In this document: positions 1-59,732 of the stretch, piece by piece | Numbering within the stretch: position 1 is the first letter of the stretch | Layout: the number at the start of each line of letters is the position of its first letter | Assembly: GCA_002869165.1 (NCBI GenBank) | Contig: PKTK01000001.1 | Location: forward strand, 510,005 to 574,004 | Direction of reading: 5' to 3' | Length of the DNA stretch: 64,000 nucleotides | Source of the DNA: Candidatus Parcubacteria bacterium | GTDB taxonomy: Bacteria > Patescibacteriota > Patescibacteriia > Patescibacteriales > UBA12075 | Position numbers and translations under genes: made by a program | Notes under the pieces: model-generated | Database searches by the model: none | Told to the model about the DNA's origin: nothing | What the model saw: the letters and a program-made list of their open reading frames with translations, nothing else

Positions 1-163
1 CTTGATCAATCTCTTCATCTCTTGCCTCATCTTCAATAATCTCTTCGAATTCCTCAACCTCATTCTGCTTTGGAACTGGTTTTTTGGTAAACTCTGTCAC
101 TGAAGAATCGCGAAGGTTTATTTGGATATCGTTATTGTTTTCGTTGTTGTCTTTTTTACTCAT
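1..163 (-). CDS. hypothetical acidic protein, N-terminal part only (gene continues past the left edge)
   Basis: ATG at 161-163 overlaps (ATGA) the TGA stop of ORF 160-693. The frame stays open to position 1 (MSKKDNNENNNDIQINLRDSSVTEF...). Confidence 0.4.
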   Translation of the reverse strand, partial: MSKKDNNENNNDIQINLRDSSVTEFTKKPVPKQNEVEEFEEIIEDEARDEEIDQ

Positions 164-693
164 ATTGTATTATGAAGTTTGAGTATTTTATCAGTTTTAA
201 TTTTAGCTTCTTGTTCAAGAAAAAAATTATTTACTCCCTGTATCATTGAAAGCCATTTTTTAATTACATCCATTATTTTCCTAGCTGAATTCCTGCCATT
301 ATTTAAAATATCTTTAATAGTTCTAGTGGCATTCTCACCAGCTTGTTTGAATTGCGATCTTTGAACTGGGTCCATTTTTATATAAAGCCCTTCTAAGCCA
401 TCAGCTAGTATATTCTCTATTTCTTTTAGCTCTTTTTCATGCTGAAACCTGCTTTGACTTTGAGAAACAATGCTAGTAGGGCTAGCAATTTCTGCATTTG
501 TTTTTCCATCTTCTTCAACTAAGTCCTCTAAGGTCTTTTCGTTTTCAAAAGCATTGTCTGACTTTTCAGGTATAGACTTTTTTAGGCCTGGGTCTTCATG
601 AATAGGCGCTTCAAAATCCTTTAAATCGAACTTCTCAGCAATATTTATTTTTTCTTGATTGTTTTTTTCTTCCATGGCTATATTATACCACAT
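160..693 (-). CDS. hypothetical protein (177 aa; likely start at MEEKNNQ, position 675)
   Basis: Long ORF co-directional with its neighbours and coupled to the next gene by an ATGA overlap. No recognisable domain. Confidence 0.5.
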   Translation of the reverse strand: MWYNIAMEEKNNQEKINIAEKFDLKDFEAPIHEDPGLKKSIPEKSDNAFENEKTLEDLVEEDGKTNAEIASPTSIVSQSQSRFQHEKELKEIENILADGLEGLYIKMDPVQRSQFKQAGENATRTIKDILNNGRNSARKIMDVIKKWLSMIQGVNNFFLEQEAKIKTDKILKLHNTI

Positions 694-711
694 TTGGCAA
701 AAAAATAAAAA

Positions 712-1284
712 CTACTCAAATAAAACCTGAATCTCATATGCATCATCATTTTTTGCTAAACCACTTGGATTACTTTTTTGTATGATTAGTGATCCATTGT
801 TTTTATAATCAGGTTTTTCGAATTCCAAAGTGCCTTTGAAAGCGACCATTTCTTCGGTCATCCAATCACCATAAGCAGTTACATATCCTTCAGCTATTAT
901 AAGTCCGTCCCAATCGGTTAAAACAACCGGCATCGTAGCTTCAAAGAACCAAGTTCCTTTTGCTTCTCCCACAATTTTTAAGGGACTTGTGATTACTTGA
1001 TTGGGTCTAGGTAAATCTAATACAACTTCACTGATTTCAATTGGTCCCAAATCTACTTCCTCAACAAACAACTGGTCACCACTACGACATTGTCTAGGAT
1101 ATGACTCCATCACTGGATTGCCTTCCTGCACACAAGTGTCAAAGTCATTTATTTCTATATCCAAATCACCTTGTTTGCATTCCGTGCAAGTTAAGTCAAT
1201 TCCTTTAATAGATATATACTGCCATCCAATCAATAATAGGAGAATTAGGATTAATACTGATAGGATTAAATATTTTTTTAACAT
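712..1284 (-). CDS. membrane-anchored Gmad2 immunoglobulin-like domain protein
   Basis: N-terminal TM helix (LILSVLILILLLLIGW). The C-terminal part (ITSPLKIVGEAKGTWFFEATMPVVLTDWDGLIIAEGYV...FKGTLEF) matches the Gmad2 Ig-like pattern. Confidence 0.6.
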   Translation of the reverse strand: MLKKYLILSVLILILLLLIGWQYISIKGIDLTCTECKQGDLDIEINDFDTCVQEGNPVMESYPRQCRSGDQLFVEEVDLGPIEISEVVLDLPRPNQVITSPLKIVGEAKGTWFFEATMPVVLTDWDGLIIAEGYVTAYGDWMTEEMVAFKGTLEFEKPDYKNNGSLIIQKSNPSGLAKNDDAYEIQVLFE

Positions 1285-1316
1285 ATTTTTTTAACAATTT
1301 ATCTAACAAAATAGAT

Positions 1317-2603
1317 TTACCTACCCCGCCACTGCTTATCCTGTCTAACTAATAATTCTTCAGCTCTTAATGGTTCGGCCATTAGTTCTAGAACTATTTT
1401 TTCCATTCTCATTCCTTGTGAACCTTTAACCAGCATAAGATCATTTTGCTTAATCCTATTTTGCAAGAATTTCCCAGCCTCTTCAGATTTATCAAAAGCA
1501 AATACATCCTCTTCTCTCATGCCATTCTCTTTGGCGCTTCTAGCTATATCCTTTGCCCTTTCACCAACTACTACCAATTTATCAATCTTGCTTTTAGCAA
1601 CGTACTCACCAACTTGCCTATGACTATCAACACTAACAGGACCTAGTTCAAGCATATCTCCAAGCACTGCATACTTTTTTGCTCCTTCATCTATTTTGGC
1701 AATTTTCAATGCGCTAACTGCCAACAAAGCTGATTTTGGCTCAGAATTATAAGTATCATCAATAATACTAGTGTGCTTGATACCTTCTACAACATTGAGT
1801 CTTCCCACAGGAGATTTGTAATCTCGCAGATATTCACATACCTTGTCCAAATTCACGTTATAAATAATACCCACACAAATTGCCGCCAAACTTGAATATA
1901 CTGCACCCAAACCTATCACATTGGGTAATTCCACTCTATGTCTAGCTCCTAGATATTTAAGCTCATAGCCAACACCTTTTAATTTATTTTCCTTGTCGTA
2001 GTTAAAATGGATATTTCTAGCGCTCACTACAGAATTTTCACTTAGTCCAAAAGAAATAACTCTAGCCTCTTATTTTTCTGCCATTTTCTTTGTCCCTTCA
2101 TCGTCAAAATTTATAATTGCATAACCTGCTTTTTCAATTGAAGAAATTAACTTACCTTTCTCAGCTTGTAGTGCTTCCCTGTTTTTAAAATGCTCGAGAT
2201 GAACCGAACCAACCAATGTAGCAACACCAATAATAGGTTTGGCGATTTCTGTTAAATAATCCATATCTCCTGGTTTATCTATCCCCATTTCCAGTATCAA
2301 TATTTCAGGATAATTTTTATCTTCTACTATCAAAAGCCAAAGAACTTTAAAACCGATAATAATCCAACCGAAAATATTTTTACCTGGAGAATAAGAGCCA
2401 ATTATTGTAAGTGGTAGACCAATTTCGTTATTATAATTTTTTTCTGACTGCCTAACGCGCTTCTCTTTTTTTAAAATACTATATATCGCCTCCTTAGTAC
2501 TAGTTTTACCAACCGAACCAGTAATAGCAATCACTGCTGGTTGATATTTTTTCAGTATCAGTTTAGCCCAATACCGAAGTTTTAATTCAATAAATTTTTT
2601 CAT
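1317..2603 (-). CDS. murF: UDP-N-acetylmuramoyl-tripeptide--D-alanyl-D-alanine ligase MurF; ORF-track pieces 2070-2603 and 1317-2027 lie in one frame across an in-frame TAA at 2070-2072
   Basis: Mur ligase P-loop ITGSVGKTSTKE in the N-terminal piece and the Mur ligase C-terminal domain (DDTYNSEPKSALLAV..., VLGDMLELG) in the other. The junction reads ...KKMAEK*EARVISFGLSENSVVSARNIHF. Confidence 0.8.
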
Positions 2604-2654
2604 ATATTTTCATTTATCCTCCTCCTTTCGAGATACCAAGGGACAATAATTTGT

Positions 2655-3281
2655 TCAAGTCCCAATAGACACTGGTGTTTTAATATTCTTGTGCTCTGAA
2701 ATATGAGCAAATAGGTCAATTATTGTCTTTAGTATGGCAAAAGCTAATAAAAATAGCAATGTTTGATTGGTAGAAGCAATTATGAATCCTCCTGCGATAA
2801 GAATTATGTGCAAAAAAATCACTCTTTTATAAGGAGCAAAGATCAAATCAAATGGACGTTTTTTTTCAAACTCTTTAGCTCCAATATAGTTTATAAAAAA
2901 CGATAATGTGTGACTTGCAAGTACAGCCAAAAATCCCATAAATACACTTTGCCAACTAAAACCGTATTTTGAAAATAAAGTAAATACAAAAACCCCGTGC
3001 ACCAAAGTAAAAACCCCATAATGAACTATAAAGAAAGGCAAAACAAAAACCTTGCTAGTCAATTTTCTTACTTTAGACACTAAAGGATTAGCTTCAACGA
3101 CTGTCTCTTTTATAAGAAGAATTTTAAATACATTAAATATCCCAATAATCAAATTTTCTGACCAGTACACAAACATAAGCGTGAACAAAGTAAAATTATG
3201 ATTATACACACCATAAACCAAAGCCATGTTTGACATTATCAGAATTAATGATGAAATTTTAAGATTGTTATTCAAATTCAT
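2655..3281 (-). CDS. polytopic membrane protein, unknown function
   Basis: 208 aa with about 6 hydrophobic segments; co-directional with murF. Confidence 0.5.
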   Translation of the reverse strand: MNLNNNLKISSLILIMSNMALVYGVYNHNFTLFTLMFVYWSENLIIGIFNVFKILLIKETVVEANPLVSKVRKLTSKVFVLPFFIVHYGVFTLVHGVFVFTLFSKYGFSWQSVFMGFLAVLASHTLSFFINYIGAKEFEKKRPFDLIFAPYKRVIFLHIILIAGGFIIASTNQTLLFLLAFAILKTIIDLFAHISEHKNIKTPVSIGT

Positions 3282-9727: not shown

Positions 9728-12118
9728 TTAATTTAATTTTTGAAAATCACTATTTGATATTCCCACGCTCTGCTCTCTCATTACCTGAAATGCATCAGAT
9801 GGTCTTCCCAAGAAATAACGACTGTTATTTTTTGGATCCACATACCACGCCTCTCCATTGCTCTCGACTTGTAAAAATATTTTGCCACTTTGGCTTTGTG
9901 AAAAATTATTATCTAGACCAATTTTTTTTCCGTTTGAAAATCTCGGATCATACCCATTTCTAATCTCATCCCTATCACTAAATCCATCACCATCACTATC
10001 ACTTTTCATAGGGTCAGTTCCGATTGCTTCCTCTAACTCATTTGACAAACCGTCACCATCACTATCTTCACCCAAGGAATAATCTACGGCTATTGGTATT
10101 TTTTCTAGGTTGGCATTGCTGATTCCTATTCCTTGTTCTCTCATTACTTGAAATGCATCTGCTGGTCTTCCTAGATAATATGCTAAATCTGTGCCTGGAT
10201 TCACATACCAAGCCCTACCTTCATTTTCTACTTCTAAAAGAATTTTACCTTTTTGATTTTTGCCAAACTGTGATCTCATTTGAATAGGGTCTAAACTTAA
10301 CACTGTTTCTGGACTAGAATTGGCTGTATCTTGTGTAACGACATTTTCCTGACTATTTACCGATGCAATCTTTCCTTCATCTGTTATATCAAAGCCTAGA
10401 CTAAATTGACTCAATATTTCCTTCTCAAAAATCTTTCTATCTTCCTTAAATCTTGTATCATTACCTTCGTCAGCTTCATAAAAAGCTGAATAATCTATTT
10501 CTATTGCCATATCAACACTTCTAAATTCATAATATAGATCATAAACATCAAAACCATCGCTATCTTTAGCTGCAAATTTTTCCGTAAACATTACCTCATT
10601 ATATAGCTCAGCATTCACATAATAACTGGTTGATTTATCATAATATTCAACATCAAAATCATCCTCCAACAAAGAAACGAAAAGACTTGAATCGTATTTA
10701 CTTTTTATATATTTTAAATAATCTTCATTACTCATTGCTTGCACTGCTTCGCTAATTTCTGAAATATCTATACTGAATCCAATATTTTGATTTTCAAGAC
10801 TAGAAAAAGAAACAGGAGAAGATTTGGAATTATCTTCCATTCCTAACCAATTTTCATTTGCAGTTATTTGAAAAAAAGGACTTTCATTCTTATAGGTATT
10901 TATATAATTCACTGATTTTAGTGAATCTGAAAACACTATACTATCCAAAAACATATCAATTTCTGTTTTACTATAATCATCCTCTCCATAATAACATGTA
11001 ATAGTAAACATATAATCATCAACAACCACGGTTTTTTGATGAAGCTCCATCCCATACATATCAATTATATCCTCAAAGCCTTCATGTCCTTTAAAATCGA
11101 TCTTTTCTTCACTGTATATTGTCATTCCTACCGTTGATAAAAAATTCACTGCCATCATGTAATCATCAATCTTCACATTTTCTTCATTAATAGGACTTCT
11201 TGTCCATACGATATTAAATAAACCCGCCTCAGAATCACTTTCATTCACTACCTCCAAAGCACTTTCTTCATTATAAGCAAACTCCCAATCTCCATCTATC
11301 GTAATACTGAAACCTAAATCTGAACTTGAAAAAATTTTACTGTCATTAACGCTTTGTTTTATCTTAATAAAATCTTTCATTCTTAAATTAAGATACAATG
11401 GAGTAGCGATCTTGGTCATGTTTTCATCTATCCAAGCGTTTACTTCTGTTATATCAATAACATATCCAAGTGAACCTAAAAGATCAGAGTGGGCCTGTGT
11501 TGTTATTCCTATTAGTTCTCCATCAGAATTAATAAGAGCACCGCCAGATGAACCATATGAAAATTCAGCATCAGTTTTAAGCCAGTTTTGATTATATTTT
11601 TCAAGTGTACCCGAAAGAATACCTGTAGTAACAGTGAGCGTATCCTCACCTATAGCCGGATACCCCAAAGCAGTGACAGTGTCCTCTTCTGTCATATTAT
11701 TTTCAGTAATTCTTTCTATTGATTTAAAATATGAACTATCACCTTCCAAGCCTTCAATCTTTTTCATCTGCAAAATCGCCAAGTCATTATCTTCATCACC
11801 CGCAATAATATCGGCACTATATGAACATAACGGTTCAGTGTCTGTATTAGTAGTAAGACAAACTAATAAAGCCACATCTACTTCGTTGTCAAAAGAGTCT
11901 TTTTCAGAAACCACATGATAATTGGTTAAAACTATTCCACTATCTTCAATAATAACACCGCTTCCGGAACTTAAAGGAGTAATCATATAGTCACTATCTT
12001 CGTAATAAGTATATATCTTAACTATATAATTATAGTTTTCTGAAGCAGCAAAAACTCCTTTCCCAGTTATCAAAAATAAAGAAAGGAGTACAATAAAAAT
12101 GTAATATTTTTTAAGCAT
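9728..12118 (-). CDS. secreted trypsin-like (S1C) serine protease with C-terminal repeat domains and DxDxDG repeats
   Basis: Start moved to MLKKYYIFIVLLSLFLITG (signal peptide). Motifs TNYHVV (His), DLAILQ (Asp), GSSGGALINSDGELIGI (Ser). Two copies of the GKI(L/F)L(E/Q)VE..G.AWYV.P...Y(Y/F)LGRP.DAFQVMREQ module. Confidence 0.75.
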   Translation of the reverse strand: MLKKYYIFIVLLSLFLITGKGVFAASENYNYIVKIYTYYEDSDYMITPLSSGSGVIIEDSGIVLTNYHVVSEKDSFDNEVDVALLVCLTTNTDTEPLCSYSADIIAGDEDNDLAILQMKKIEGLEGDSSYFKSIERITENNMTEEDTVTALGYPAIGEDTLTVTTGILSGTLEKYNQNWLKTDAEFSYGSSGGALINSDGELIGITTQAHSDLLGSLGYVIDITEVNAWIDENMTKIATPLYLNLRMKDFIKIKQSVNDSKIFSSSDLGFSITIDGDWEFAYNEESALEVVNESDSEAGLFNIVWTRSPINEENVKIDDYMMAVNFLSTVGMTIYSEEKIDFKGHEGFEDIIDMYGMELHQKTVVVDDYMFTITCYYGEDDYSKTEIDMFLDSIVFSDSLKSVNYINTYKNESPFFQITANENWLGMEDNSKSSPVSFSSLENQNIGFSIDISEISEAVQAMSNEDYLKYIKSKYDSSLFVSLLEDDFDVEYYDKSTSYYVNAELYNEVMFTEKFAAKDSDGFDVYDLYYEFRSVDMAIEIDYSAFYEADEGNDTRFKEDRKIFEKEILSQFSLGFDITDEGKIASVNSQENVVTQDTANSSPETVLSLDPIQMRSQFGKNQKGKILLEVENEGRAWYVNPGTDLAYYLGRPADAFQVMREQGIGISNANLEKIPIAVDYSLGEDSDGDGLSNELEEAIGTDPMKSDSDGDGFSDRDEIRNGYDPRFSNGKKIGLDNNFSQSQSGKIFLQVESNGEAWYVDPKNNSRYFLGRPSDAFQVMREQSVGISNSDFQKLN

Positions 12119-12146
12119 GTTTTTTGTTTTTATTTTTATATTTTTT

Positions 12147-12578
12147 TTAAACTCCCAGTTCACCCAAAGCTTCAGCTATCTCTGTGCTTTCTGCTTCAGC
12201 TTCTGTTTTGTATTTGTCCCAATTTTCTTCATCCCAGATCTCAAGTCTATCAAATAGACCAGCTACGATAGTTTTTTTATTAAGACCCGCATACTTGCGT
12301 AAATACTCAGGTAAATTAATGCGTCCCTGTGCATCACACTCTACATCCATAGCTCCAGCCAACATTAAACGTGAAAAAGCCCTGGCCTTAGATTGACTGA
12401 TTGGAAGATTGGCCAGTTTTTCTACGATCTTTTCCCATTGATCACGCGTATATAAAAAAAGACAGTTATCAAGACCCCTGGTCACCACTGCTCCTTGTTT
12501 TAACTTTTCTCTGAACTTAGCTGGAACTGCTAGCCTGCCTTTTACATCTAAGTTGTGATTGTATTCTCCAATAAACAT
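12147..12578 (-). CDS. mraZ: transcriptional regulator MraZ
   Basis: MFIGEYNHNLDVKGRLAVPAKFR... and a second SpoVT/AbrB-like half (DAQGRINLPEYLR). The ORF-track start at 12608 adds 10 unlikely residues. Confidence 0.85.
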   Translation of the reverse strand: MFIGEYNHNLDVKGRLAVPAKFREKLKQGAVVTRGLDNCLFLYTRDQWEKIVEKLANLPISQSKARAFSRLMLAGAMDVECDAQGRINLPEYLRKYAGLNKKTIVAGLFDRLEIWDEENWDKYKTEAEAESTEIAEALGELGV

Positions 12579-26487: not shown

Positions 26488-27444
26488 TTAACCGTCATAA
26501 TTTGAGTTTCTAAAAACATTAGACATATTACCTTTAATATTCTTTTTGTCTCTAGGATTTTTTTGTATATTATTATTTGAATTGTTAATTCTATTATTTC
26601 TAATATTTTTATTGTTTTGATTATTATGCTTATTAGTATTTTTATAATTACTATTTGCAAAACGATTATTTTTGTGTGTTACAGGTTCTTCATCAACCAA
26701 TACATCTTCTATACTAGGTTTTCTTTTTTCTTCGATGCTTTGGTGAGATATCGACTCGCTCACATCTAGATGAGCCGCTACATAACTATTCTCTGTAATT
26801 CTCTTGGAACCAGGAAAAAGTCTAATGTCATAATCTCTGGATGGCAAAATATAAATATAAGCAATACTAATAACAAAACCGAATACAAAAGCAAGTGAAA
26901 AATTCATAACAATATTTGGTTTTACCGGCCATGATGATAACAATGGTTGATCAATAATCTTTACCTCAACATCATTTCCTGAACCATGATATGAACTATG
27001 CTTGGTTTGCAAAGTATAATTAATTGCCTGTGAGATCTTTTCAGCTTGCCACTTATTTTTATGATATACCACGATATCGATCATACCAGTAGCAGCATTT
27101 GCACTAGCATCTACTGAACTTAACCACTCTTTCATTTGCTCACGAGCATTACCAGAAAAATAATCAGTATCTATATCAAAGCCAGCTTTCATTACTTCTA
27201 CGAAAAATGAATTAGATGAAATGACTTCTGAAAGTACATTACTCAAATATTCATTTGACTTAGCAGTAACATAAGGATCACTCCCTGCGCTAAAACTTTG
27301 CACCACCATGATCTTTGATGTACTTGAATACTTTAAAGGTTGCAAAAATGTAAATAATGCACTAAGTACCAATACCGTAATCATGATAGTCGCTATAGTC
27401 TGCTTCTTTCTTCTTATTAATTGTATAAACTCCTTGATTTCCAT
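26488..27444 (-). CDS. Wzz-like polysaccharide chain-length determinant with an Asn-rich C-terminal tail
   Basis: N-terminal IQLIRRKKQTIATIMITVLVLSALFTFLQPLKYSSTSKIMV and a second TM helix near residue 185. The tail is NNRFANSNYKNTNKHNNQNNKNIRNNRINNSNNN. Confidence 0.55.
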   Translation of the reverse strand: MEIKEFIQLIRRKKQTIATIMITVLVLSALFTFLQPLKYSSTSKIMVVQSFSAGSDPYVTAKSNEYLSNVLSEVISSNSFFVEVMKAGFDIDTDYFSGNAREQMKEWLSSVDASANAATGMIDIVVYHKNKWQAEKISQAINYTLQTKHSSYHGSGNDVEVKIIDQPLLSSWPVKPNIVMNFSLAFVFGFVISIAYIYILPSRDYDIRLFPGSKRITENSYVAAHLDVSESISHQSIEEKRKPSIEDVLVDEEPVTHKNNRFANSNYKNTNKHNNQNNKNIRNNRINNSNNNIQKNPRDKKNIKGNMSNVFRNSNYDG

Positions 27445-29805: not shown

Positions 29806-30558
29806 TTAATAAATAAACACCTCTGTCCCTACCTCTGTCCAATTATATACTTCCTCTGCCTCTCCAACCCCCAAACGAATACAACCGTGCGATACTGGTG
29901 TTCCTAGGTGATTTTCACCTTCTTTGTAACCGCCTGGCCATTCTGGAAGTTCATGAATGCCGAATTTACCATAGTTCATACCAAGCCAATAAGGCATCCA
30001 AAGACCATAAGCAGATGACCATGGCCGAGGAAGTTTATTATAAATCGTAAAATGACCTTTAGGAGTAGGCATACTAGGCTTACCAGTTGAAACTGTATAA
30101 GTCTTCATGCGAACTCCACCGAGAAATATACTTAATTCCTGGGCGCCAGTATTTACTTCTATTCTTTTCTCTAAACTACTTGTGCCTTTTTTCAAAGGAT
30201 CAAAAAAATTAGCTATCTCAATACCATCCCTTAGCCCATCTCCATCTGTATCAATATTTGATAAATCTGTATGAAAATTGAGTTCCATTCTATCACTTAG
30301 ACCATCACCATCAAAATCACTTTCTTCTAACTTCAAAGGTCGAGAGTCAAGAGGCGTATATCCATTGTTGAGCTCCGTCCAGTCAGAATAATTATCATCA
30401 TCAGTGTCTGCTTTTTCGGTATCGGTTTTATATATTTCAATCTCATCCTTGTCAGGTACACCATCAATATCAGCATCACGAAAAACTGAAGCGCTGCTAA
30501 CTAGCACTCCTAGTGAAAAAATTAATACTGCAAATAAAAATATTTTGGGGATTTTCAT
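29806..30558 (-). CDS. L,D-transpeptidase (YkuD domain) with N-terminal DxDxDG calcium-binding repeats
   Basis: Signal peptide, repeats DADIDGVPDKDE/DTDDDNYSDW/DFDGDGLSD/DTDGDGLRD, and catalytic HLGTPVSHGCIRL. Confidence 0.8.
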   Translation of the reverse strand: MKIPKIFLFAVLIFSLGVLVSSASVFRDADIDGVPDKDEIEIYKTDTEKADTDDDNYSDWTELNNGYTPLDSRPLKLEESDFDGDGLSDRMELNFHTDLSNIDTDGDGLRDGIEIANFFDPLKKGTSSLEKRIEVNTGAQELSIFLGGVRMKTYTVSTGKPSMPTPKGHFTIYNKLPRPWSSAYGLWMPYWLGMNYGKFGIHELPEWPGGYKEGENHLGTPVSHGCIRLGVGEAEEVYNWTEVGTEVFIY

Positions 30559-35356: not shown

Positions 35357-36040
35357 ATGACAGAAGAAAAAAAGACAAAAAACAAGGTATAATTTGACAG
35401 ATTCAAATCATATTCTATCGAAGAAGCTATTATACTAGCAAAAGAATTAGACAAAGCAAAATTTGATGCTTCTGTTGAACTTCATTTCAAACTAGGAATC
35501 GATCCTAGAAAAGGAGACCAACAAATCAGAACTGCCCTATCACTTCCTCACGGAACTGGTAAATCAGTTAAAGTTGCTGCTTTTGTGTCTGATGAAAAAA
35601 TCAAAGAATGTAAAGACGCTGGTGCAGATTTCGTAGGAAATACTGACTTGATTGAAGAAATCAAAAAGACTGAAAAGACTGACTTCCAAGTAGCTGTAGC
35701 AGAACCTGCTATGATGCGTGAATTAGCTCAAATAGCTAAAATTCTTGGAACTCGTGGCCTAATGCCTAGCCCAAAGAACGAAACTGTGACTCCAAATCCA
35801 ACTCAAGCAATCGCTGAGCTCAAAAAAGGTAAAATCAGCTTCAAAAACGATGATGGTGGAAACATTCATGTATCTGTTGGAAAAGTAAGTTTTGATGAAG
35901 CAAAACTAAAAGAAAATATTGATGCCATGATTGACTGTATCAAAAAAGCCAAACCAGCCAAATCAAAAGGAATATATATCAGAAACATCTCTCTAAGTAC
36001 ATCCATGGGGCCAGGTATTAAGGTAATGATTCCGAAATAA
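35357..36040 (+). CDS. rplA: 50S ribosomal protein L1; ATG at 35357, in-frame TAA at 35390-35392 (codon 12); ORF-track piece 35585-36040 is only the C-terminal two thirds
   Basis: [80 protein letters not shown]... is continuous L1 sequence in the frame of 35585-36040. Confidence 0.85.
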
Positions 36041-41492: not shown

Positions 41493-42998
41493 ATGGAATA
41501 CGATGTAATTATCGGCTTGGAAATACATGCTGAACTCAAAACCAAATCAAAAATGTTTTGCGAATGTGATAACAATCCGGAGGGTAAAAAACCAAATGAA
41601 AATACCTGTCCAATTTGTCTTGGACATCCTGGTTGTTTGCCTATTCCAAACAAACAAGCAATAGAATGGACAGTTTTAACTGGTCTGGCACTACATTGTA
41701 AGGTTAATAAATTATCAAAATTTGATAGAAAAAATTACTTCTATCATGATCTACCAAAAGCATATCAGATTTCTCAGTATGACTTGCCTTTTGTGTATGA
41801 TGGCTATATGCAGGTTGATGATACACGGGTTGCTATTACTCGGATTCACCTAGAAGAAGATACTGGCAAAAACACTCATCCAGCTGGCAAGAACTATTCA
41901 TTGATTGATTTCAATAGATCATCAACTCCTCTCATGGAAATGGTAACTGAGCCAACTATAAAATCAGCAGAACAAGCTAAAAAATTCTGTCAACAATACC
42001 AACAAATCTTAAGATACTTGGATATCTCTAATGCTGATATGGAAAAAGGAGAAATGAGATGTGAGGCAAATATCTCAGTGCAAGAGAAAGGTAAATGGGA
42101 ATACTTGGGAAATTGTGAAATCAAGCCAATCGGAGATTATAAACTAAGTCCAAAAGTTGAAGTCAAAAACATCAACTCTTTTAAAGCCGTGGAAAAGGCT
42201 ATCAACTTCGAAATCAAAAGACAAATTGAAGCTCTAGAAGATGGTGAAAAGCTTGTACAGGAAACTCGTGGTTGGGACGAAAACAAAGCAGTAACAGTAA
42301 GCCAAAGAACCAAAGAAACTTCAGCTGACTATAGATACTTTCCTGAACCAGATATTCCTCCAATCAAATTTGAAGCTAGCGAAATTGAAGCTATCAAAGC
42401 CAAACTAACTGAAATGCCACCAGAGAAAAAAGTACGCTTCATAGAGCAATATGACTTTGACGCTGATACTGCTGAGATACTTGTAGCCGACAAGCAAATT
42501 GCTAACTTTGCCGAAAACACAATCTCTGAACTAAGAGCCTGGATTGATTCAAATGGTGATGACTGGGAAAGACAAAAGAAAAAACTTGCCAAAACAGCAT
42601 CCAACTGGCTAACTTCTGAACTATTTAAATATATCAAAGCAGATGGTATGGAAGTAATCAAGAAAATCACGCCAGAAAATTTTGCTGAACTAATCACGCT
42701 AATATATCAAGGCAAGATTAACTCAAGCGCTGGCCAGACAGTACTTGAAAAAATGGCCACTGACGGAGGAGATCCTAGCAATATCGTAGAAGAACTCGGC
42801 CTTGAGCAAATCGATGACGAAGCTGAACTGGAAAAAACCATTCAAAATATTCTAGACCAAAACGCTTCTCAAGTCGAAGAATACAAAAGCGGAAAAGAAA
42901 ACGTTATCCAATTCTTTGTTGGTCAAACCATGTCAGCCACGAAAGGAAAGGCTAACCCTAAAAAAGTAATAGAAATACTAAAAAAACTATTATCATAA
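41493..42998 (+). CDS. gatB: Asp/Glu-tRNA amidotransferase subunit B
   Basis: 501 aa; MEYDVIIGLEIHAELKTKSKMFC, CPICLGHPG, RIHLEEDTGK, and a C-terminal GatB/YqeY domain. Confidence 0.9.
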   Translation: MEYDVIIGLEIHAELKTKSKMFCECDNNPEGKKPNENTCPICLGHPGCLPIPNKQAIEWTVLTGLALHCKVNKLSKFDRKNYFYHDLPKAYQISQYDLPFVYDGYMQVDDTRVAITRIHLEEDTGKNTHPAGKNYSLIDFNRSSTPLMEMVTEPTIKSAEQAKKFCQQYQQILRYLDISNADMEKGEMRCEANISVQEKGKWEYLGNCEIKPIGDYKLSPKVEVKNINSFKAVEKAINFEIKRQIEALEDGEKLVQETRGWDENKAVTVSQRTKETSADYRYFPEPDIPPIKFEASEIEAIKAKLTEMPPEKKVRFIEQYDFDADTAEILVADKQIANFAENTISELRAWIDSNGDDWERQKKKLAKTASNWLTSELFKYIKADGMEVIKKITPENFAELITLIYQGKINSSAGQTVLEKMATDGGDPSNIVEELGLEQIDDEAELEKTIQNILDQNASQVEEYKSGKENVIQFFVGQTMSATKGKANPKKVIEILKKLLS

Positions 42999-43183
42999 AT
43001 CTCTTCGATCGATCCTTTAGGGTTAGCCACAAAAGGAAAGGCTAATCCTAAAAAAGTGATAGAAATACTAAAAAAACAAATGTCGTAAATCTCTTCGATC
43101 GATCCTTTAGGGTCAGCCACAAAAGGAAAGGCTAATCCTAAAAAAGTGATAGAAATACTAAAAAAACTAATGTCTTAAATCTC
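42935..43183. repeat. 90-bp tandem repeat (~2.75 copies) duplicating the last 20 codons plus stop of gatB and 27 nt of downstream sequence
   Basis: agccacgaaaggaaaggctaaccc... starts at 42935, 43025 and 43115. Each copy ends ...EILKK(LL/QM/LM)S-TAA. Confidence 0.9.
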
Positions 43184-47935: not shown

Positions 47936-48622
47936 TTAAACTCTTCTAGGCTTGCGTTGTCTGCAACCATTGTGTGGTTTAGGGGTTACATCTTGAATAG
48001 AAGTAACTACAAGTCCGTTATTATTTAGTGATCTAATTGCTTATTCTCTGCCTGTTCCCACTCCTTTTACAAATACACTCACTTCAGACAAACCAAACTC
48101 TTCCCTTGCCTTGCCTACAGCAATTCTAGTGATAATCTGAGCAGCATATGGAGTAGCCTTTTTAGGTCCTTTAAACCCGGCTATACCAGCTGAAGCCCAA
48201 GAAATAACACTGCCATTTTGATCAGTAAGGGTTACTATAGTATTATTATAAGTTGATTTAATAAAAGCTTTTCCCGTTGGAACTTTTCTGGCTACTTTTT
48301 TCTTTTTCTTTCTTACTTTGCTTTTTTTATTCTTTTGCTCGTTTTCGGTCTTTTTCTTTTCTAATTTCTTGATGATTTCTTCTGGCAAAGTTTCAAGTCC
48401 TGAAGAGTCTTTTTCGGTTTTTAGACTAACCTCATCTTTTGAATCGCGTGCAAGCGATTCATCCGCCGCACCGGAGGTGCTTTGGGCGGATTCGTTTTCT
48501 TTAGTATCTACATCAACATTAGCAGTTTTATCTGCCTTTTTTTCTACTTTGTCACCACCTTCGGTCTCAGTAGTTTTTGCGTCTTTTGTTGTTTTTTCTT
48601 CACTCATAGATATGAATATCAC
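47936..48622 (-). CDS. rpsK: 30S ribosomal protein S11 with a ~100-aa charged N-terminal extension; frame crosses an in-frame TAA at 48041-48043
   Basis: ORF-track piece 48041-48622 ends ...VKGVGTGRE. The same frame continues as [37 protein letters not shown] (47936), which is the conserved S11 C-terminus. Confidence 0.85.
48437..48496. repeat. GC-rich two-hairpin element, copy 2, inside the rpsK N-terminal extension
   Basis: ttttgaatcgcgtgcaagcgattcatccgccgcaccggaggtgctttgggcggattcg; about 76% identical to 8517-8580 with paired stem changes. Confidence 0.7.
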
Positions 48623-53332: not shown

Positions 53333-53584
53333 TTAAAGTCTTTCAATTTCTTTTGTTTTAATTTTTGAGATTGTTTCTGAGACTAAGTAAGCTGCATGCA
53401 AGGCCGACATGGCTTTTTTTTGAAAATCCACGCCCTCTATGTAGCTACTAGGGCACGATTTTCGAAAAAGATTAAATCTTGCATAAAATCCTTCTTTTAT
53501 TTGCTCCAACTCTTCTATACTTCCTGCACTAAACTCACAAATCTTTTTTCCGCCCTCTTCTATACAAACTTTGTATTCTGGCAT
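53333..53584 (-). CDS. small hypothetical protein (83 aa from MPEYKV)
   Basis: SD aaggagagatccATG. The ORF-track start at 53617 would overlap the upstream gene. Confidence 0.4.
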   Translation of the reverse strand: MPEYKVCIEEGGKKICEFSAGSIEELEQIKEGFYARFNLFRKSCPSSYIEGVDFQKKAMSALHAAYLVSETISKIKTKEIERL

Positions 53585-53613
53585 GGATCTCTCCTTTTCA
53601 CTTTTATAAAAGA

Positions 53614-54819
53614 TCAATTTTCAAAAATTTTGCCAATATCACTTTTTTTAAATTTTTCTGCTCGAGCGAATCTATCAAAATAATATTCGGTTTTTAGCCT
53701 GGCTTTGTTATTCCCAATTGCTTCAAGTATACATTCGAGGCTTCTCTTCTTGAATCTGTCTCTATATTTCTTTTCTAAGTTCTCGCTTAAATCTCTTAGC
53801 TTCTTTGATCTTTGTTTTATCACTTTCACATCTACTTGTCCGGGCATTGAATAAGCTGGGGTTCTCTCATGAGCGGAAAATGAAAATACATGAATCTTGG
53901 AAAACTGCATTGCCTGACAAAATTCATAAGTCTCCAGAAGGTCACCGTCCTCTTCTCCAGGAAAACCAACAATCACATCAGTAGTAATAGCAATATCGGG
54001 AATCTTAGATCTTAGATCATAAACCTTATTTTTAAAATCTTCTAATCTATAAGGCCTGTTCATGAGTTTCAAAATCTTGTCACAACCAGACTGAAGTGGA
54101 ATATGGAGATGATTGCAAATCTTTTTTTCTTTCTTGATCAACTCAATTAATTCATCACTAACTTCATTTATTTCAATTGAGCTTAACCTTATTCTACCTA
54201 AATCTTTTATTTCTAAAATGTCATTGATTAAATCAATTAACTTGTACTCACTATCATGCCCATAAAGCCCGAGGTGAATTCCTGACAATACTATCTCCCT
54301 ATATCCTTCTTGAACTGCTTTTTTAATTTCTAACAAAACATCCTCTCTTTTTCGACTACTTAATCCGCCTCTTGTATATGGGATAATACAGTATGAACAA
54401 AACTGCTCGCAACCGTCTTGCACCTTGATAAAATATCTTGATCTAGTCTGCTGACTTAAGTCCGAATCATGAGAATAGCTATGTGAAGTGCCTAAAATAA
54501 ATTCCTCTAAAGTACTATGGTCTTTGGTATCCAAGATAAAATCAACCCCCAATTTTTCACTATCAATTTCAGACACTCTTGGCCAACAACCAGCCAAAAT
54601 TATCTTTGCCTTGGGATTTTCTTTCTTGGCTTTAGTGATCATGCGTCTATTTTTGGTTACTGCGCTATGAGTTACTGAGCAGGTGTAAACAATCGCATAC
54701 TCAGCATTTTCTTTCGTTTCTTTTAAATTCCCCAGACTCAAAGCCGACCCTAGCTTCCCAGCGTCATACTGATTCACCTTGCATCCAAGTGAGTATAATT
54801 TGTAAGTATTTTTTTTCAT
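53614..54819 (-). CDS. MiaB/MtaB-family radical SAM tRNA methylthiotransferase (MtaB-like)
   Basis: N-terminal YSLGCKVNQYD and radical SAM CEQFCSYCIIPYTRG; 401 aa. Confidence 0.75.
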   Translation of the reverse strand: MKKNTYKLYSLGCKVNQYDAGKLGSALSLGNLKETKENAEYAIVYTCSVTHSAVTKNRRMITKAKKENPKAKIILAGCWPRVSEIDSEKLGVDFILDTKDHSTLEEFILGTSHSYSHDSDLSQQTRSRYFIKVQDGCEQFCSYCIIPYTRGGLSSRKREDVLLEIKKAVQEGYREIVLSGIHLGLYGHDSEYKLIDLINDILEIKDLGRIRLSSIEINEVSDELIELIKKEKKICNHLHIPLQSGCDKILKLMNRPYRLEDFKNKVYDLRSKIPDIAITTDVIVGFPGEEDGDLLETYEFCQAMQFSKIHVFSFSAHERTPAYSMPGQVDVKVIKQRSKKLRDLSENLEKKYRDRFKKRSLECILEAIGNNKARLKTEYYFDRFARAEKFKKSDIGKIFEN

Positions 54820-57291: not shown

Positions 57292-57531
57292 TTAGCTTTC
57301 GTTTTCTCTTAAATCATACCAACTCTTAAATGCTCCATTTAAAAAAATTTCATTCTGTAACTCCAATTGAATACTTGGATGACGGCTAAAGATTGATACT
57401 TGTGAATAATCACCCATATTCTTATAAAATACACTATAGTCGGTTCGTTTTAGATCAATAGACCCCAATGAAGCTTTAAAAAATCCTAATTCCTTATTTG
57501 GAACATTCAATATAATAGCTTCATTTTCCAT
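57292..57531 (-). CDS. small hypothetical protein (79 aa)
   Basis: SD aaggagggaaaaATG; promoter candidate at 57578-57606. Confidence 0.5.
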   Translation of the reverse strand: MENEAIILNVPNKELGFFKASLGSIDLKRTDYSVFYKNMGDYSQVSIFSRHPSIQLELQNEIFLNGAFKSWYDLRENES

Positions 57532-57713: not shown

Positions 57714-59732
57714 ATGGCTAAAAAAGAAGAAAAAAAAGTAATAAAGAAAAAATCAGACTACGGCGCTGAGGCGATTACAGTTTTGGAGGGACTGGATCCA
57801 GTAAGAAAAAGACCAGGTATGTACATTGGCTCAACAGCTAGCTCTGGACTACATCATTTAATCTGGGAAGTAGTAGATAACGGCTTTGATGAAGCTATGG
57901 CTGGACACGCTGATACTGTCACTATTACCCTACAAGAGGATGGCATGGTTCGAGTAGAGGATAATGGGCGTGGTATCCCAGTTGACAAACACAAAGTAAC
58001 TGGTGTATCTGCACTTGAAACAGTTTTAACCAAACTTCACGCTGGTGGTAAATTTGGTGGCGAAGGATCAGGCTACAAAGTATCTGGTGGTCTTCACGGT
58101 GTTGGTGTATCAGTAGTAAATGCTCTATCAAAACACTTAAAAGCCGAAGTACACCGAGATGGTAAAATCTGGACCCAGGAATACAAAATTGGCAAACCAA
58201 AAGGAAAAATCAAATCAGCTGGCACCACCAAAAAAACTGGAACTGTTATCACCTTTTTGCCAGATGACAGTATTTTTACTGAAACCGAATTCAAATGGGG
58301 CACCATTCTAGACCATCTAAGAAGACAAGCATATCTAACCAAGGGAGTAACTGTTAATATTCACGACCGCAGAAAAGAACATAGCCAAAAAGATTATTCA
58401 TTTTATTTCGAAGGTGGTGTTCTTTCTTACATCAAAAATTTAAACTTAAATAAAACTGTAAAAAACCCAACTATTTTCTATGTTGAAAAAGAAATTGAGA
58501 ACTCAAAGATTGAAATAGCACTCCAATACAACGATGAGTACAATGAAACTGTTCTACCTTTTGCCAATAATATCCCAAATCCAGAAGGTGGTACCCACCT
58601 AGTTGGCTTTAGAACTGCTCTAACAAGAACTCTCAATTCATATGCTAGAAATCAAAAGCTTCTCAAAGAAAAAGACGAAAACCTAGCCGGTGAAGATGTT
58701 CGAGAAGGCTTAACTGCAATTGTTTAAGTTAAGCTAACCGAACCACAATTTGAAGGGCAAACAAAAGGAAAACTGGGAAACGCTGAAGTAAAAACTCAAG
58801 TTGAACAAATATTCGGTGAATCTTTTGCAACGTTTTTAGAAGAACACCCCAAAGAAGCAGAAGCAATCATTGGTAAATGTATCGTAGCCTCTCAAGCTCG
58901 TATTGCTGCAAGAACTGCCAGAGCTTCTATTCTACGAAAAGGCGCTCTAGATGGTATTACTCTACCAGGTAAACTAGCTGACTGTTCTAGCCGAAAAGCC
59001 GAGGAGTCTGAAATATTTATCGTGGAGGGCGACTCCGCTGGAGGTTCTGCCAAACAAGGACGTGATAGAAAATTCCAGGCCATCCTACCCCTACGTGGTA
59101 AGATTCTAAACGTAGAAAGAGCTAGATTAGATAAAATGCTTGCCAATAACGAAATTAAAAATCTAGTAATTGCACTAGGTACAAACATCAATGATCAATT
59201 TGATATAGAAAAACTCAGATATCATAGAATCGTGATCATGACAGATGCTGATGTTGATGGTGCTCATATCAGAACCTTACTATTAACCCTTTTCTTTAGA
59301 CACTTTAATGAATTAGTGGCTGCTGGACATCTTTACATCGCCCAACCACCACTATATCAAGTCAAAAAAGGTGCCAAAGTAGAATACGCTTATTCTGAAG
59401 CTGAAAAAGAAAAAATTATTAAATCATTGGGTGGGCACGTAGATGAAGAAGTAAAAGAACTTGAAGAAGGTGAGGAAGAAAACGAAGAAGAAACAAAAAA
59501 GAAAGCCAACGCCAGAATCTCTATTCAGCGATATAAGGGTCTTGGTGAAATGAACCCTGAACAATTATGGGAGACAACTATGGATCCTGAACAACGTGTT
59601 ATGAGCCAAGTTACCATAGAAGATGCTGCTTATGCTGATAAAATATTTGATATGCTCATGGGTGGAGATGTTGCTCCAAGAAAACACTTCATTCAAACAC
59701 ATGCTAAGAAGGTTGAAAATCTTGATATATAA
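57714..59732 (+). CDS. gyrB: DNA gyrase subunit B; one frame throughout, with an in-frame TAA at 58725-58727 (ORF-track pieces 57714-58727 and 59022-59732)
   Basis: GHKL ATPase motifs ([23 protein letters not shown]), [12 protein letters not shown], Toprim [36 protein letters not shown], and C-terminus ...AKKVENLDI. Confidence 0.9.

Follow-up and report, generated by a model that had tools for sequence, protein, structure and literature searches.

The in-frame TAA in murF of one deposited Parcubacteria record is probably a technical consensus error

The closest described counterpart of the gene considered here is the short form of MurF (UDP-N-acetylmuramoyl-tripeptide--D-alanyl-D-alanine ligase) that is common in Patescibacteria, in which a Mur_ligase_M domain with a P-loop is followed by a Mur_ligase_C domain. 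In-frame stop codons are known from recoded phages and from Gracilibacteria/Absconditabacteria, where UGA is read as glycine (code 25). A different source of apparent stops is guanine oxidation during library preparation, an artefact recognised by C>A/G>T changes that are strongest at CCG>CAG and that normally occur at low allele fraction (Costello et al. 2013, PMC3616734). The murF-type gene in the window, as the whole 64-kb stretch of DNA analysed here is called, has the same two domains as short-form MurF and no detectable N-terminal Mur ligase domain, and it is interrupted by a TAA codon in this record only. The locus is organised as follows.

1317..2603, minus strand: murF-type Mur ligase gene of 428 codons plus terminator, broken here but uninterrupted in the organism's other assemblies
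2070..2072, minus strand: in-frame TAA at murF codon 178, TCA (Ser) in public assemblies
2073..2603, minus strand: N-terminal piece of murF (177 codons), which encodes GSVGKTS, the P-loop, and the leading two thirds of Mur_ligase_M
1317..2069, minus strand: C-terminal piece of murF (250 sense codons), which encodes the remainder of the middle domain together with Mur_ligase_C

Translation of the minus strand confirmed the preliminary description, which had reported an in-frame TAA at 2070-2072 and had placed ORFs 2070-2603 (177 aa, ATG start) and 1317-2027 (236 aa, GTG start), as delimited by the ORF finder, in one frame. The junction reads GGG ACA AAG AAA ATG GCA GAA AAA TAA GAG GCT AGA GTT ATT TCT TTT GGA and translates as ...GTKKMAEK*EARVISFGLSENSVV..., while one-frame translation of 2612..1317 yields 428 codons with a sole internal stop (...FDDEGTKKMAEK*EARVISFGLSENSVV...). 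Between the TAA and the GTG lie exactly 14 sense codons, EARVISFGLSENSV, which had been taken for normal MurF sequence, and this was borne out. The two pieces had also been proposed to add up to a short-form MurF of normal length; read through the stop, the 428 codons match the intact 428-aa protein P0241 at all positions but the stop.

In the Pfam comparison, Mur_ligase_M (PF08245) matched the upstream piece (E=3.9e-25) and broke off at profile position 132 of 200, and Mur_ligase_C (PF02875) matched the downstream piece over profile positions 1-126 of 127 (E=1e-18). The P-loop, which follows the pattern GxxGKT/S, occupies residues 30-36. The stop falls within the middle domain and substitutes exactly one residue; murF is one gene severed by a single codon, and a chance juxtaposition of two ORFs is excluded.

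On sequence grounds, the gene is best filed as MurF, having both Mur ligase domains, a place in the dcw cluster and TIGR01143 (murF) as its top model. The intact protein scored 285.6 bits against this NCBIfam model (E=6.5e-85), the best of 16 families, where the curated cut-off is 288.6; the shortfall of 3 bits is probably due to the missing N-terminal domain, a feature shared with the Patescibacteria homologues. Identity to 425-446-aa homologues labelled MurF by their sources is 53-63%. As with described MurF, the gene belongs to a dcw-type division and cell-wall cluster, here with murF two genes downstream of the PBP transpeptidase gene. The order is mraZ, protease, rsmH, a small ORF, PBP transpeptidase, a 623-aa protein, a 176-aa ORF on the opposite strand, DUF6498 and murF; in the relative carrying locus L003, murF directly follows the PBP gene. 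The protease between mraZ and rsmH (9728-12163, minus strand) is a secreted-type protein of about 800 aa that combines a trypsin-like peptidase domain with a bacterial TSP3 repeat, in place of which the syntenic locus L003 has merely a 46-aa ORF.

A protein database search with the joined MurF returned thousands of Patescibacteria/Parcubacteria Mur ligases, of which the best 120 were aligned. All but one of these (119/120) are in one piece, with lengths of 421-446 aa, and in 101 of the 120 the column of the stop is occupied by Ser. The remaining homologue, P0003, is a near-identical fragment of 275 aa with ...KKMAEKSEARVISFG... at the junction. It is encoded on a contig (L001; ENA ERZ794998, k-mer coverage 2.7) that is 99.4% identical to window positions 1-2880 and has TCA at the site of the TAA. 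This contig carries a defect of its own at about positions 1109-1112 (window 1794-1804), an 8-bp deletion in murF that causes a frameshift, so that P0003 ends in ...DYKSPVVSCRRYQAH. The deletion is another assembly-specific defect, this time of ERZ794998, and occurs neither in the window nor in the JGI assembly.

The homologues bear on the idea that the two halves are made as separate polypeptides which assemble into an active ligase. The C-terminal piece does have a CDS of its own in the NCBI annotation, a 246-aa hypothetical protein (C0583_02520, PLX28082.1). However, the cut lies inside the middle domain and not between domains, and the first ATG, GTG or TTG past the stop is the GTG 14 codons downstream, the NCBI annotation having resorted to an ATT start. 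Separate expression of the halves in relatives, raised in the preliminary description, found no counterpart either: among the 120 best homologues no relative has a split gene, and the gene is intact in the same population. A functional split is hardly credible at all. The same description had asked whether another Mur ligase might substitute; no second Mur ligase was found in the 64-kb window, and no substitute is needed.

The window was compared with other assemblies of the same Parcubacteria population. Exact look-up of the IF-1 protein of the window led to contigs of JGI 3300007102 (Ga0102541_1058941, 129 kb) and ENA ERZ794999 (NODE_4, 500,921 bp, coverage 23), and further look-ups tiled the whole window. 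Together with Logan SRR5894289 and ENA ERZ794998, these assemblies match it from end to end without gaps at 99.94% identity, although some of them may derive from the same reads and not all may be mutually independent. Over window positions 39249-59491, the JGI and ERZ794999 contigs each differ from the window at 16 of 20,243 positions with no indel, and at 13 (JGI) or 14 (ERZ794999) of the 16 a public G:C is a T:A in the window. On both contigs gyrB (672 aa) and the ribosomal protein S11 gene (223 aa) are intact.

The murF stop is a single C>A change at window position 2071 (G>T on the plus strand) relative to the public assemblies. At the level of the assemblies a sense codon, TCA (Ser), stands at this site in JGI 3300007102 and ERZ794998, and a 428-aa murF is called on the JGI contig. 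The earlier account as two halves of one MurF with one residue replaced is upheld, but its suggestion of an essential gene that is tolerated as broken, read through or split is not. The exact intact 428-aa MurF is on record from JGI/IMG, Logan and ENA, the ENA copy on a 500,921-bp contig that is evidently ERZ794999 NODE_4. By contrast, the window variants of AlaRS, the ABC-F ATPase and ThyA are on record from NCBI only (PLX28137.1, PLX28141.1 and PLX28121.1), all from the MAG 'Candidatus Parcubacteria bacterium' with locus tags C0583_ and a 584,723-bp contig. The TAA is therefore a trait of one deposited record. In the exact protein look-up, no record was returned for the N-terminal pieces of murF and gyrB, for PLX28082.1, or for the intact-looking protein encoded at 29806-30558, which contains a private S31I change. 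Exact-pattern scans of genome and metagenome contig collections with the murF junction, the variable base being given as N, likewise gave no match.

Across the 64 kb, 33 substitutions are private to the window, and none of them is present in any other assembly. They comprise 31 C>A/G>T changes, one C>G and one T>C, which corresponds to a private C>A rate of about 5 per 10 kb in this MAG. Six of the changes create stops, listed here together with a cluster of missense changes in alaS.

2071: murF, TCA>TAA
35390..35392, plus strand: rplA (ribosomal protein L1), codon 12, GAA (Glu)>TAA at 35390; GAA in three other assemblies
45218: unannotated 94-aa ORF, probably not a gene, GGA (Gly)>TGA
48041..48043, minus strand: rpsK (ribosomal protein S11), TCA>TAA at 48042, 34 codons before the true end
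57292..57294, minus strand: 158-aa ORF between the ABC-F gene and gyrB, TCA>TAA at 57293
58725..58727, plus strand: gyrB, codon 338, TCA>TAA at 58726; TCA in JGI and ERZ794999
50335-52233, minus strand: alaS (PLX28137.1), private S45Y, P52H and P190H, all C>A and in conserved AlaRS stretches

The gyrB stop, like that of murF, replaces one profile position, at which 117 of 120 homologues have Ser. The preliminary description had grouped the two interruptions; they are of the same class, but the origin of both appears to be trivial, as does that of the stops in rpsK, rplA and the 158-aa ORF. In rplA the next possible start is 65 codons downstream of the stop, and the ORF finder lists a 151-aa remnant only. 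The public assemblies have TCA in rpsK and encode a 223-aa S11, whose last 34 residues are lost here. Neither half of the 158-aa ORF has a Pfam match. Three further private changes replace Gly by Cys, in the ABC-F ATPase (G29C), ThyA (G172C) and the 623-aa protein.

The effects of the 31 C>A/G>T changes were compared with an unselected model comprising every possible G:C>T:A change in the window, weighted by the observed trinucleotide preferences. The model shares are 57.6% missense, 16.4% nonsense, 13.7% synonymous and 12.2% intergenic, or 17.9, 5.1, 4.2 and 3.8 of 31 changes, and the corresponding observed numbers are 14, 6, 5 and 6 (chi-square about 2.4 on 3 degrees of freedom, by hand arithmetic). 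The private changes fit a process without selection. Between viable strains that had truly diverged, nonsense changes are expected to be all but absent and missense changes heavily depleted. The outgroup was GCA_054029735.1, a relative with conserved synteny (loci L002 and L003). It has Ser at the murF, gyrB and rpsK stop sites and carries the residue of the public assemblies at each of the 9 amino-acid-changing sites for which polarisation was possible, which makes the window alleles the derived ones.

These results can be set against a real nonsense mutation, in which the MAG would represent a true sub-lineage, for example a hypermutator without repair of oxidised guanine, with murF and other genes pseudogenised. 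Strains lacking mutY or mutM have a G:C>T:A mutation spectrum, and the private spectrum is as expected of defective 8-oxoG repair; moreover, the public record that contains the TAA was assembled to a contig of 584 kb. Such a lineage, however, would within the same 64 kb also lose gyrB and ribosomal proteins S11 and L1 and have a damaged AlaRS, and at whole-genome scale it would carry dozens of nonsense mutations, a load that is not viable. The split into missense, nonsense and synonymous changes matches zero selection, and only 1 of the 33 private substitutions is a transition, where real strains usually differ by many transitions. A real mutation is accordingly considered unlikely. Were all 31 changes real, a natural Parcubacteria sub-population would be hypermutating through unrepaired guanine oxidation and would owe its survival to suppression of ochre codons, to multiple genome copies or to complementation among its members, a scenario that is very unlikely.

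Another explanation is that UAA is read as Ser by a suppressor tRNA-Ser, or is read through, so that full-length MurF, GyrB and S11 are made. Seryl-tRNA synthetase does not read the anticodon, and Ser-inserting suppressors arise easily. Four in-frame TAA codons (murF, gyrB, rpsK and the 158-aa ORF) do stand at Ser positions, and Ser is conserved among the murF and gyrB homologues and present in rpsK of the outgroup. As in organisms with a reassigned stop codon, the stops interrupt conserved positions of essential genes in a bacterium of the candidate phyla radiation. Unlike in those organisms, the codon is still the main terminator, ending 46 of the 67 ORFs of at least 80 aa, and only 5-6 copies stand in frame among about 19,000 codons. 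The stops are absent from the other assemblies, from the outgroup and from the top 120 homologues of MurF and the top 120 of GyrB, being conserved in no relative. Nor do they stand for one amino acid: the rplA TAA replaces Glu, against four for Ser, and a TGA replaces Gly in the doubtful ORF. With a stop that is not conserved, a codon that remains the main terminator and several amino acids replaced, the murF TAA belongs to no recoding system. The stops also occur alongside 25 further C>A changes that do not involve stop codons. Reading of TAA as Ser was dropped on the strength of the rplA change, these 25 changes and the use of TAA as main terminator, and recoding or suppression in general is extremely unlikely. 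No tRNA genes were found in the 64-kb window, where TCA makes up 1.8% of codons and GAA 6%.

The share of TCA>TAA among the nonsense changes, four of six against about 20% expected (binomial p about 0.016, post hoc), looks like the product of context preference plus chance. All four lie in TCAG, as does a fifth, synonymous event at 27415. A systematic miscall of TCAG, for example through methylation-dependent basecalling, was considered and dropped: intact TCAG is still found 232 times on one strand and 247 times on the other, and the majority of the private changes are outside this motif.

The remaining reading, that the murF TAA is a technical consensus error in this record and not biology, the organism having an ordinary, uninterrupted murF, is given a probability of roughly 0.86. 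The distribution of differences among the assemblies bears on it directly. Singletons, counted wherever at least three sequences overlap, are as follows.

Window (NCBI MAG): 33, of which 31 C>A
ERZ794998 (coverage about 2.7, 22 kb covered): 33, of which 18 C>A
JGI 3300007102: 7, of which 6 C>A
ERZ794999 (coverage 23): 0
Logan SRR5894289: 0

The discrepancy typical of these data sets is C>A/G>T, and it is gone at good coverage. The same type of error hits the JGI 3300007102 assembly at a lower rate; its private differences are at 2662, 19750, 24046, 24867, 24869, 30402 and 41968, six of the seven being C>A/G>T.

The likeliest origin would be technical, in that oxidative damage to guanine (8-oxoG-type), or another process with comparable G>T/C>A errors, reached the consensus. 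At murF codon 178 a T would have been read in place of a template-strand G, the most plausible route being a pairing of 8-oxoG with A in the course of amplification, and that read, or the products of a single amplified molecule, may then have set the assembly consensus. The organism itself would make one 428-aa ligase from a normal murF. Among the 31 changes the 5' neighbour is a pyrimidine in 28; most events come from TCA, TCT and CCA contexts, and the highest per-site rate, 6.0 per 1000 sites, is that of CCG, on 3 events only. The private changes resemble described 8-oxoG artefacts (PMC3616734) in being nearly all G:C>T:A (31/33), in the lack of purifying selection and in their absence from a higher-coverage assembly of the same organism, and they may share the peak at CCG. 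They differ in that the published artefacts are at low fraction in deep data, whereas those found here were seen in an assembly consensus. A contig of 584 kb also implies decent coverage, which sits ill with about 5 consensus errors per 10 kb. Such errors would be accounted for, as a matter of conjecture, by amplification from single molecules or of whole genomes, or by an unusual step of correction or polishing. The strand orientation of the 31 changes falls into 14 runs by hand count, against about 16 expected, with no sign of long tracts of single-strand damage.

Because the organism has a normal murF, the interruption carries little biological weight, and its significance is for data quality. 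Within 64 kb the C>A errors of this MAG produce false pseudogenes or split genes in murF, gyrB, rpsK, rplA and the 158-aa ORF, as well as radical missense changes in AlaRS, ThyA and other proteins. Such records would mislead work on candidate phyla radiation genomes that looks for pseudogenes, lost or split genes, or alternative codes. A simple test, in which assemblies of the same population are compared and the substitutions are then examined for their spectrum and for agreement with an unselected model, tells error from real recoding.

Several other features of the window were recorded. The S11 encoded by rpsK (47936-48622, minus strand) is extended at its N-terminus by about 95 residues, among which Lys, Glu, Asp, Thr and Ser are abundant, and measures 223 aa here and 210 aa in GCA_054029735.1; S11 of model bacteria has about 130 aa. 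At 53333-54819 on the minus strand lies a MiaB-like radical SAM gene encoding 401 aa with UPF0004 and Radical_SAM domains, in which a TRAM domain was not detected; it is followed, with a 4-nt overlap, by a 94-aa ORF that has no Pfam match, and the public assemblies contain the same 401-aa gene. The 3' end of gatB (41493-42998) and the sequence beyond it (42932-43183, plus strand) form a direct repeat with an offset of 90 nt and about 93% identity. The last GatB residues (ANPKKVIEILKK) recur after the stop codon, also in the public assemblies, and the end of the gene appears to have undergone a small tandem duplication.
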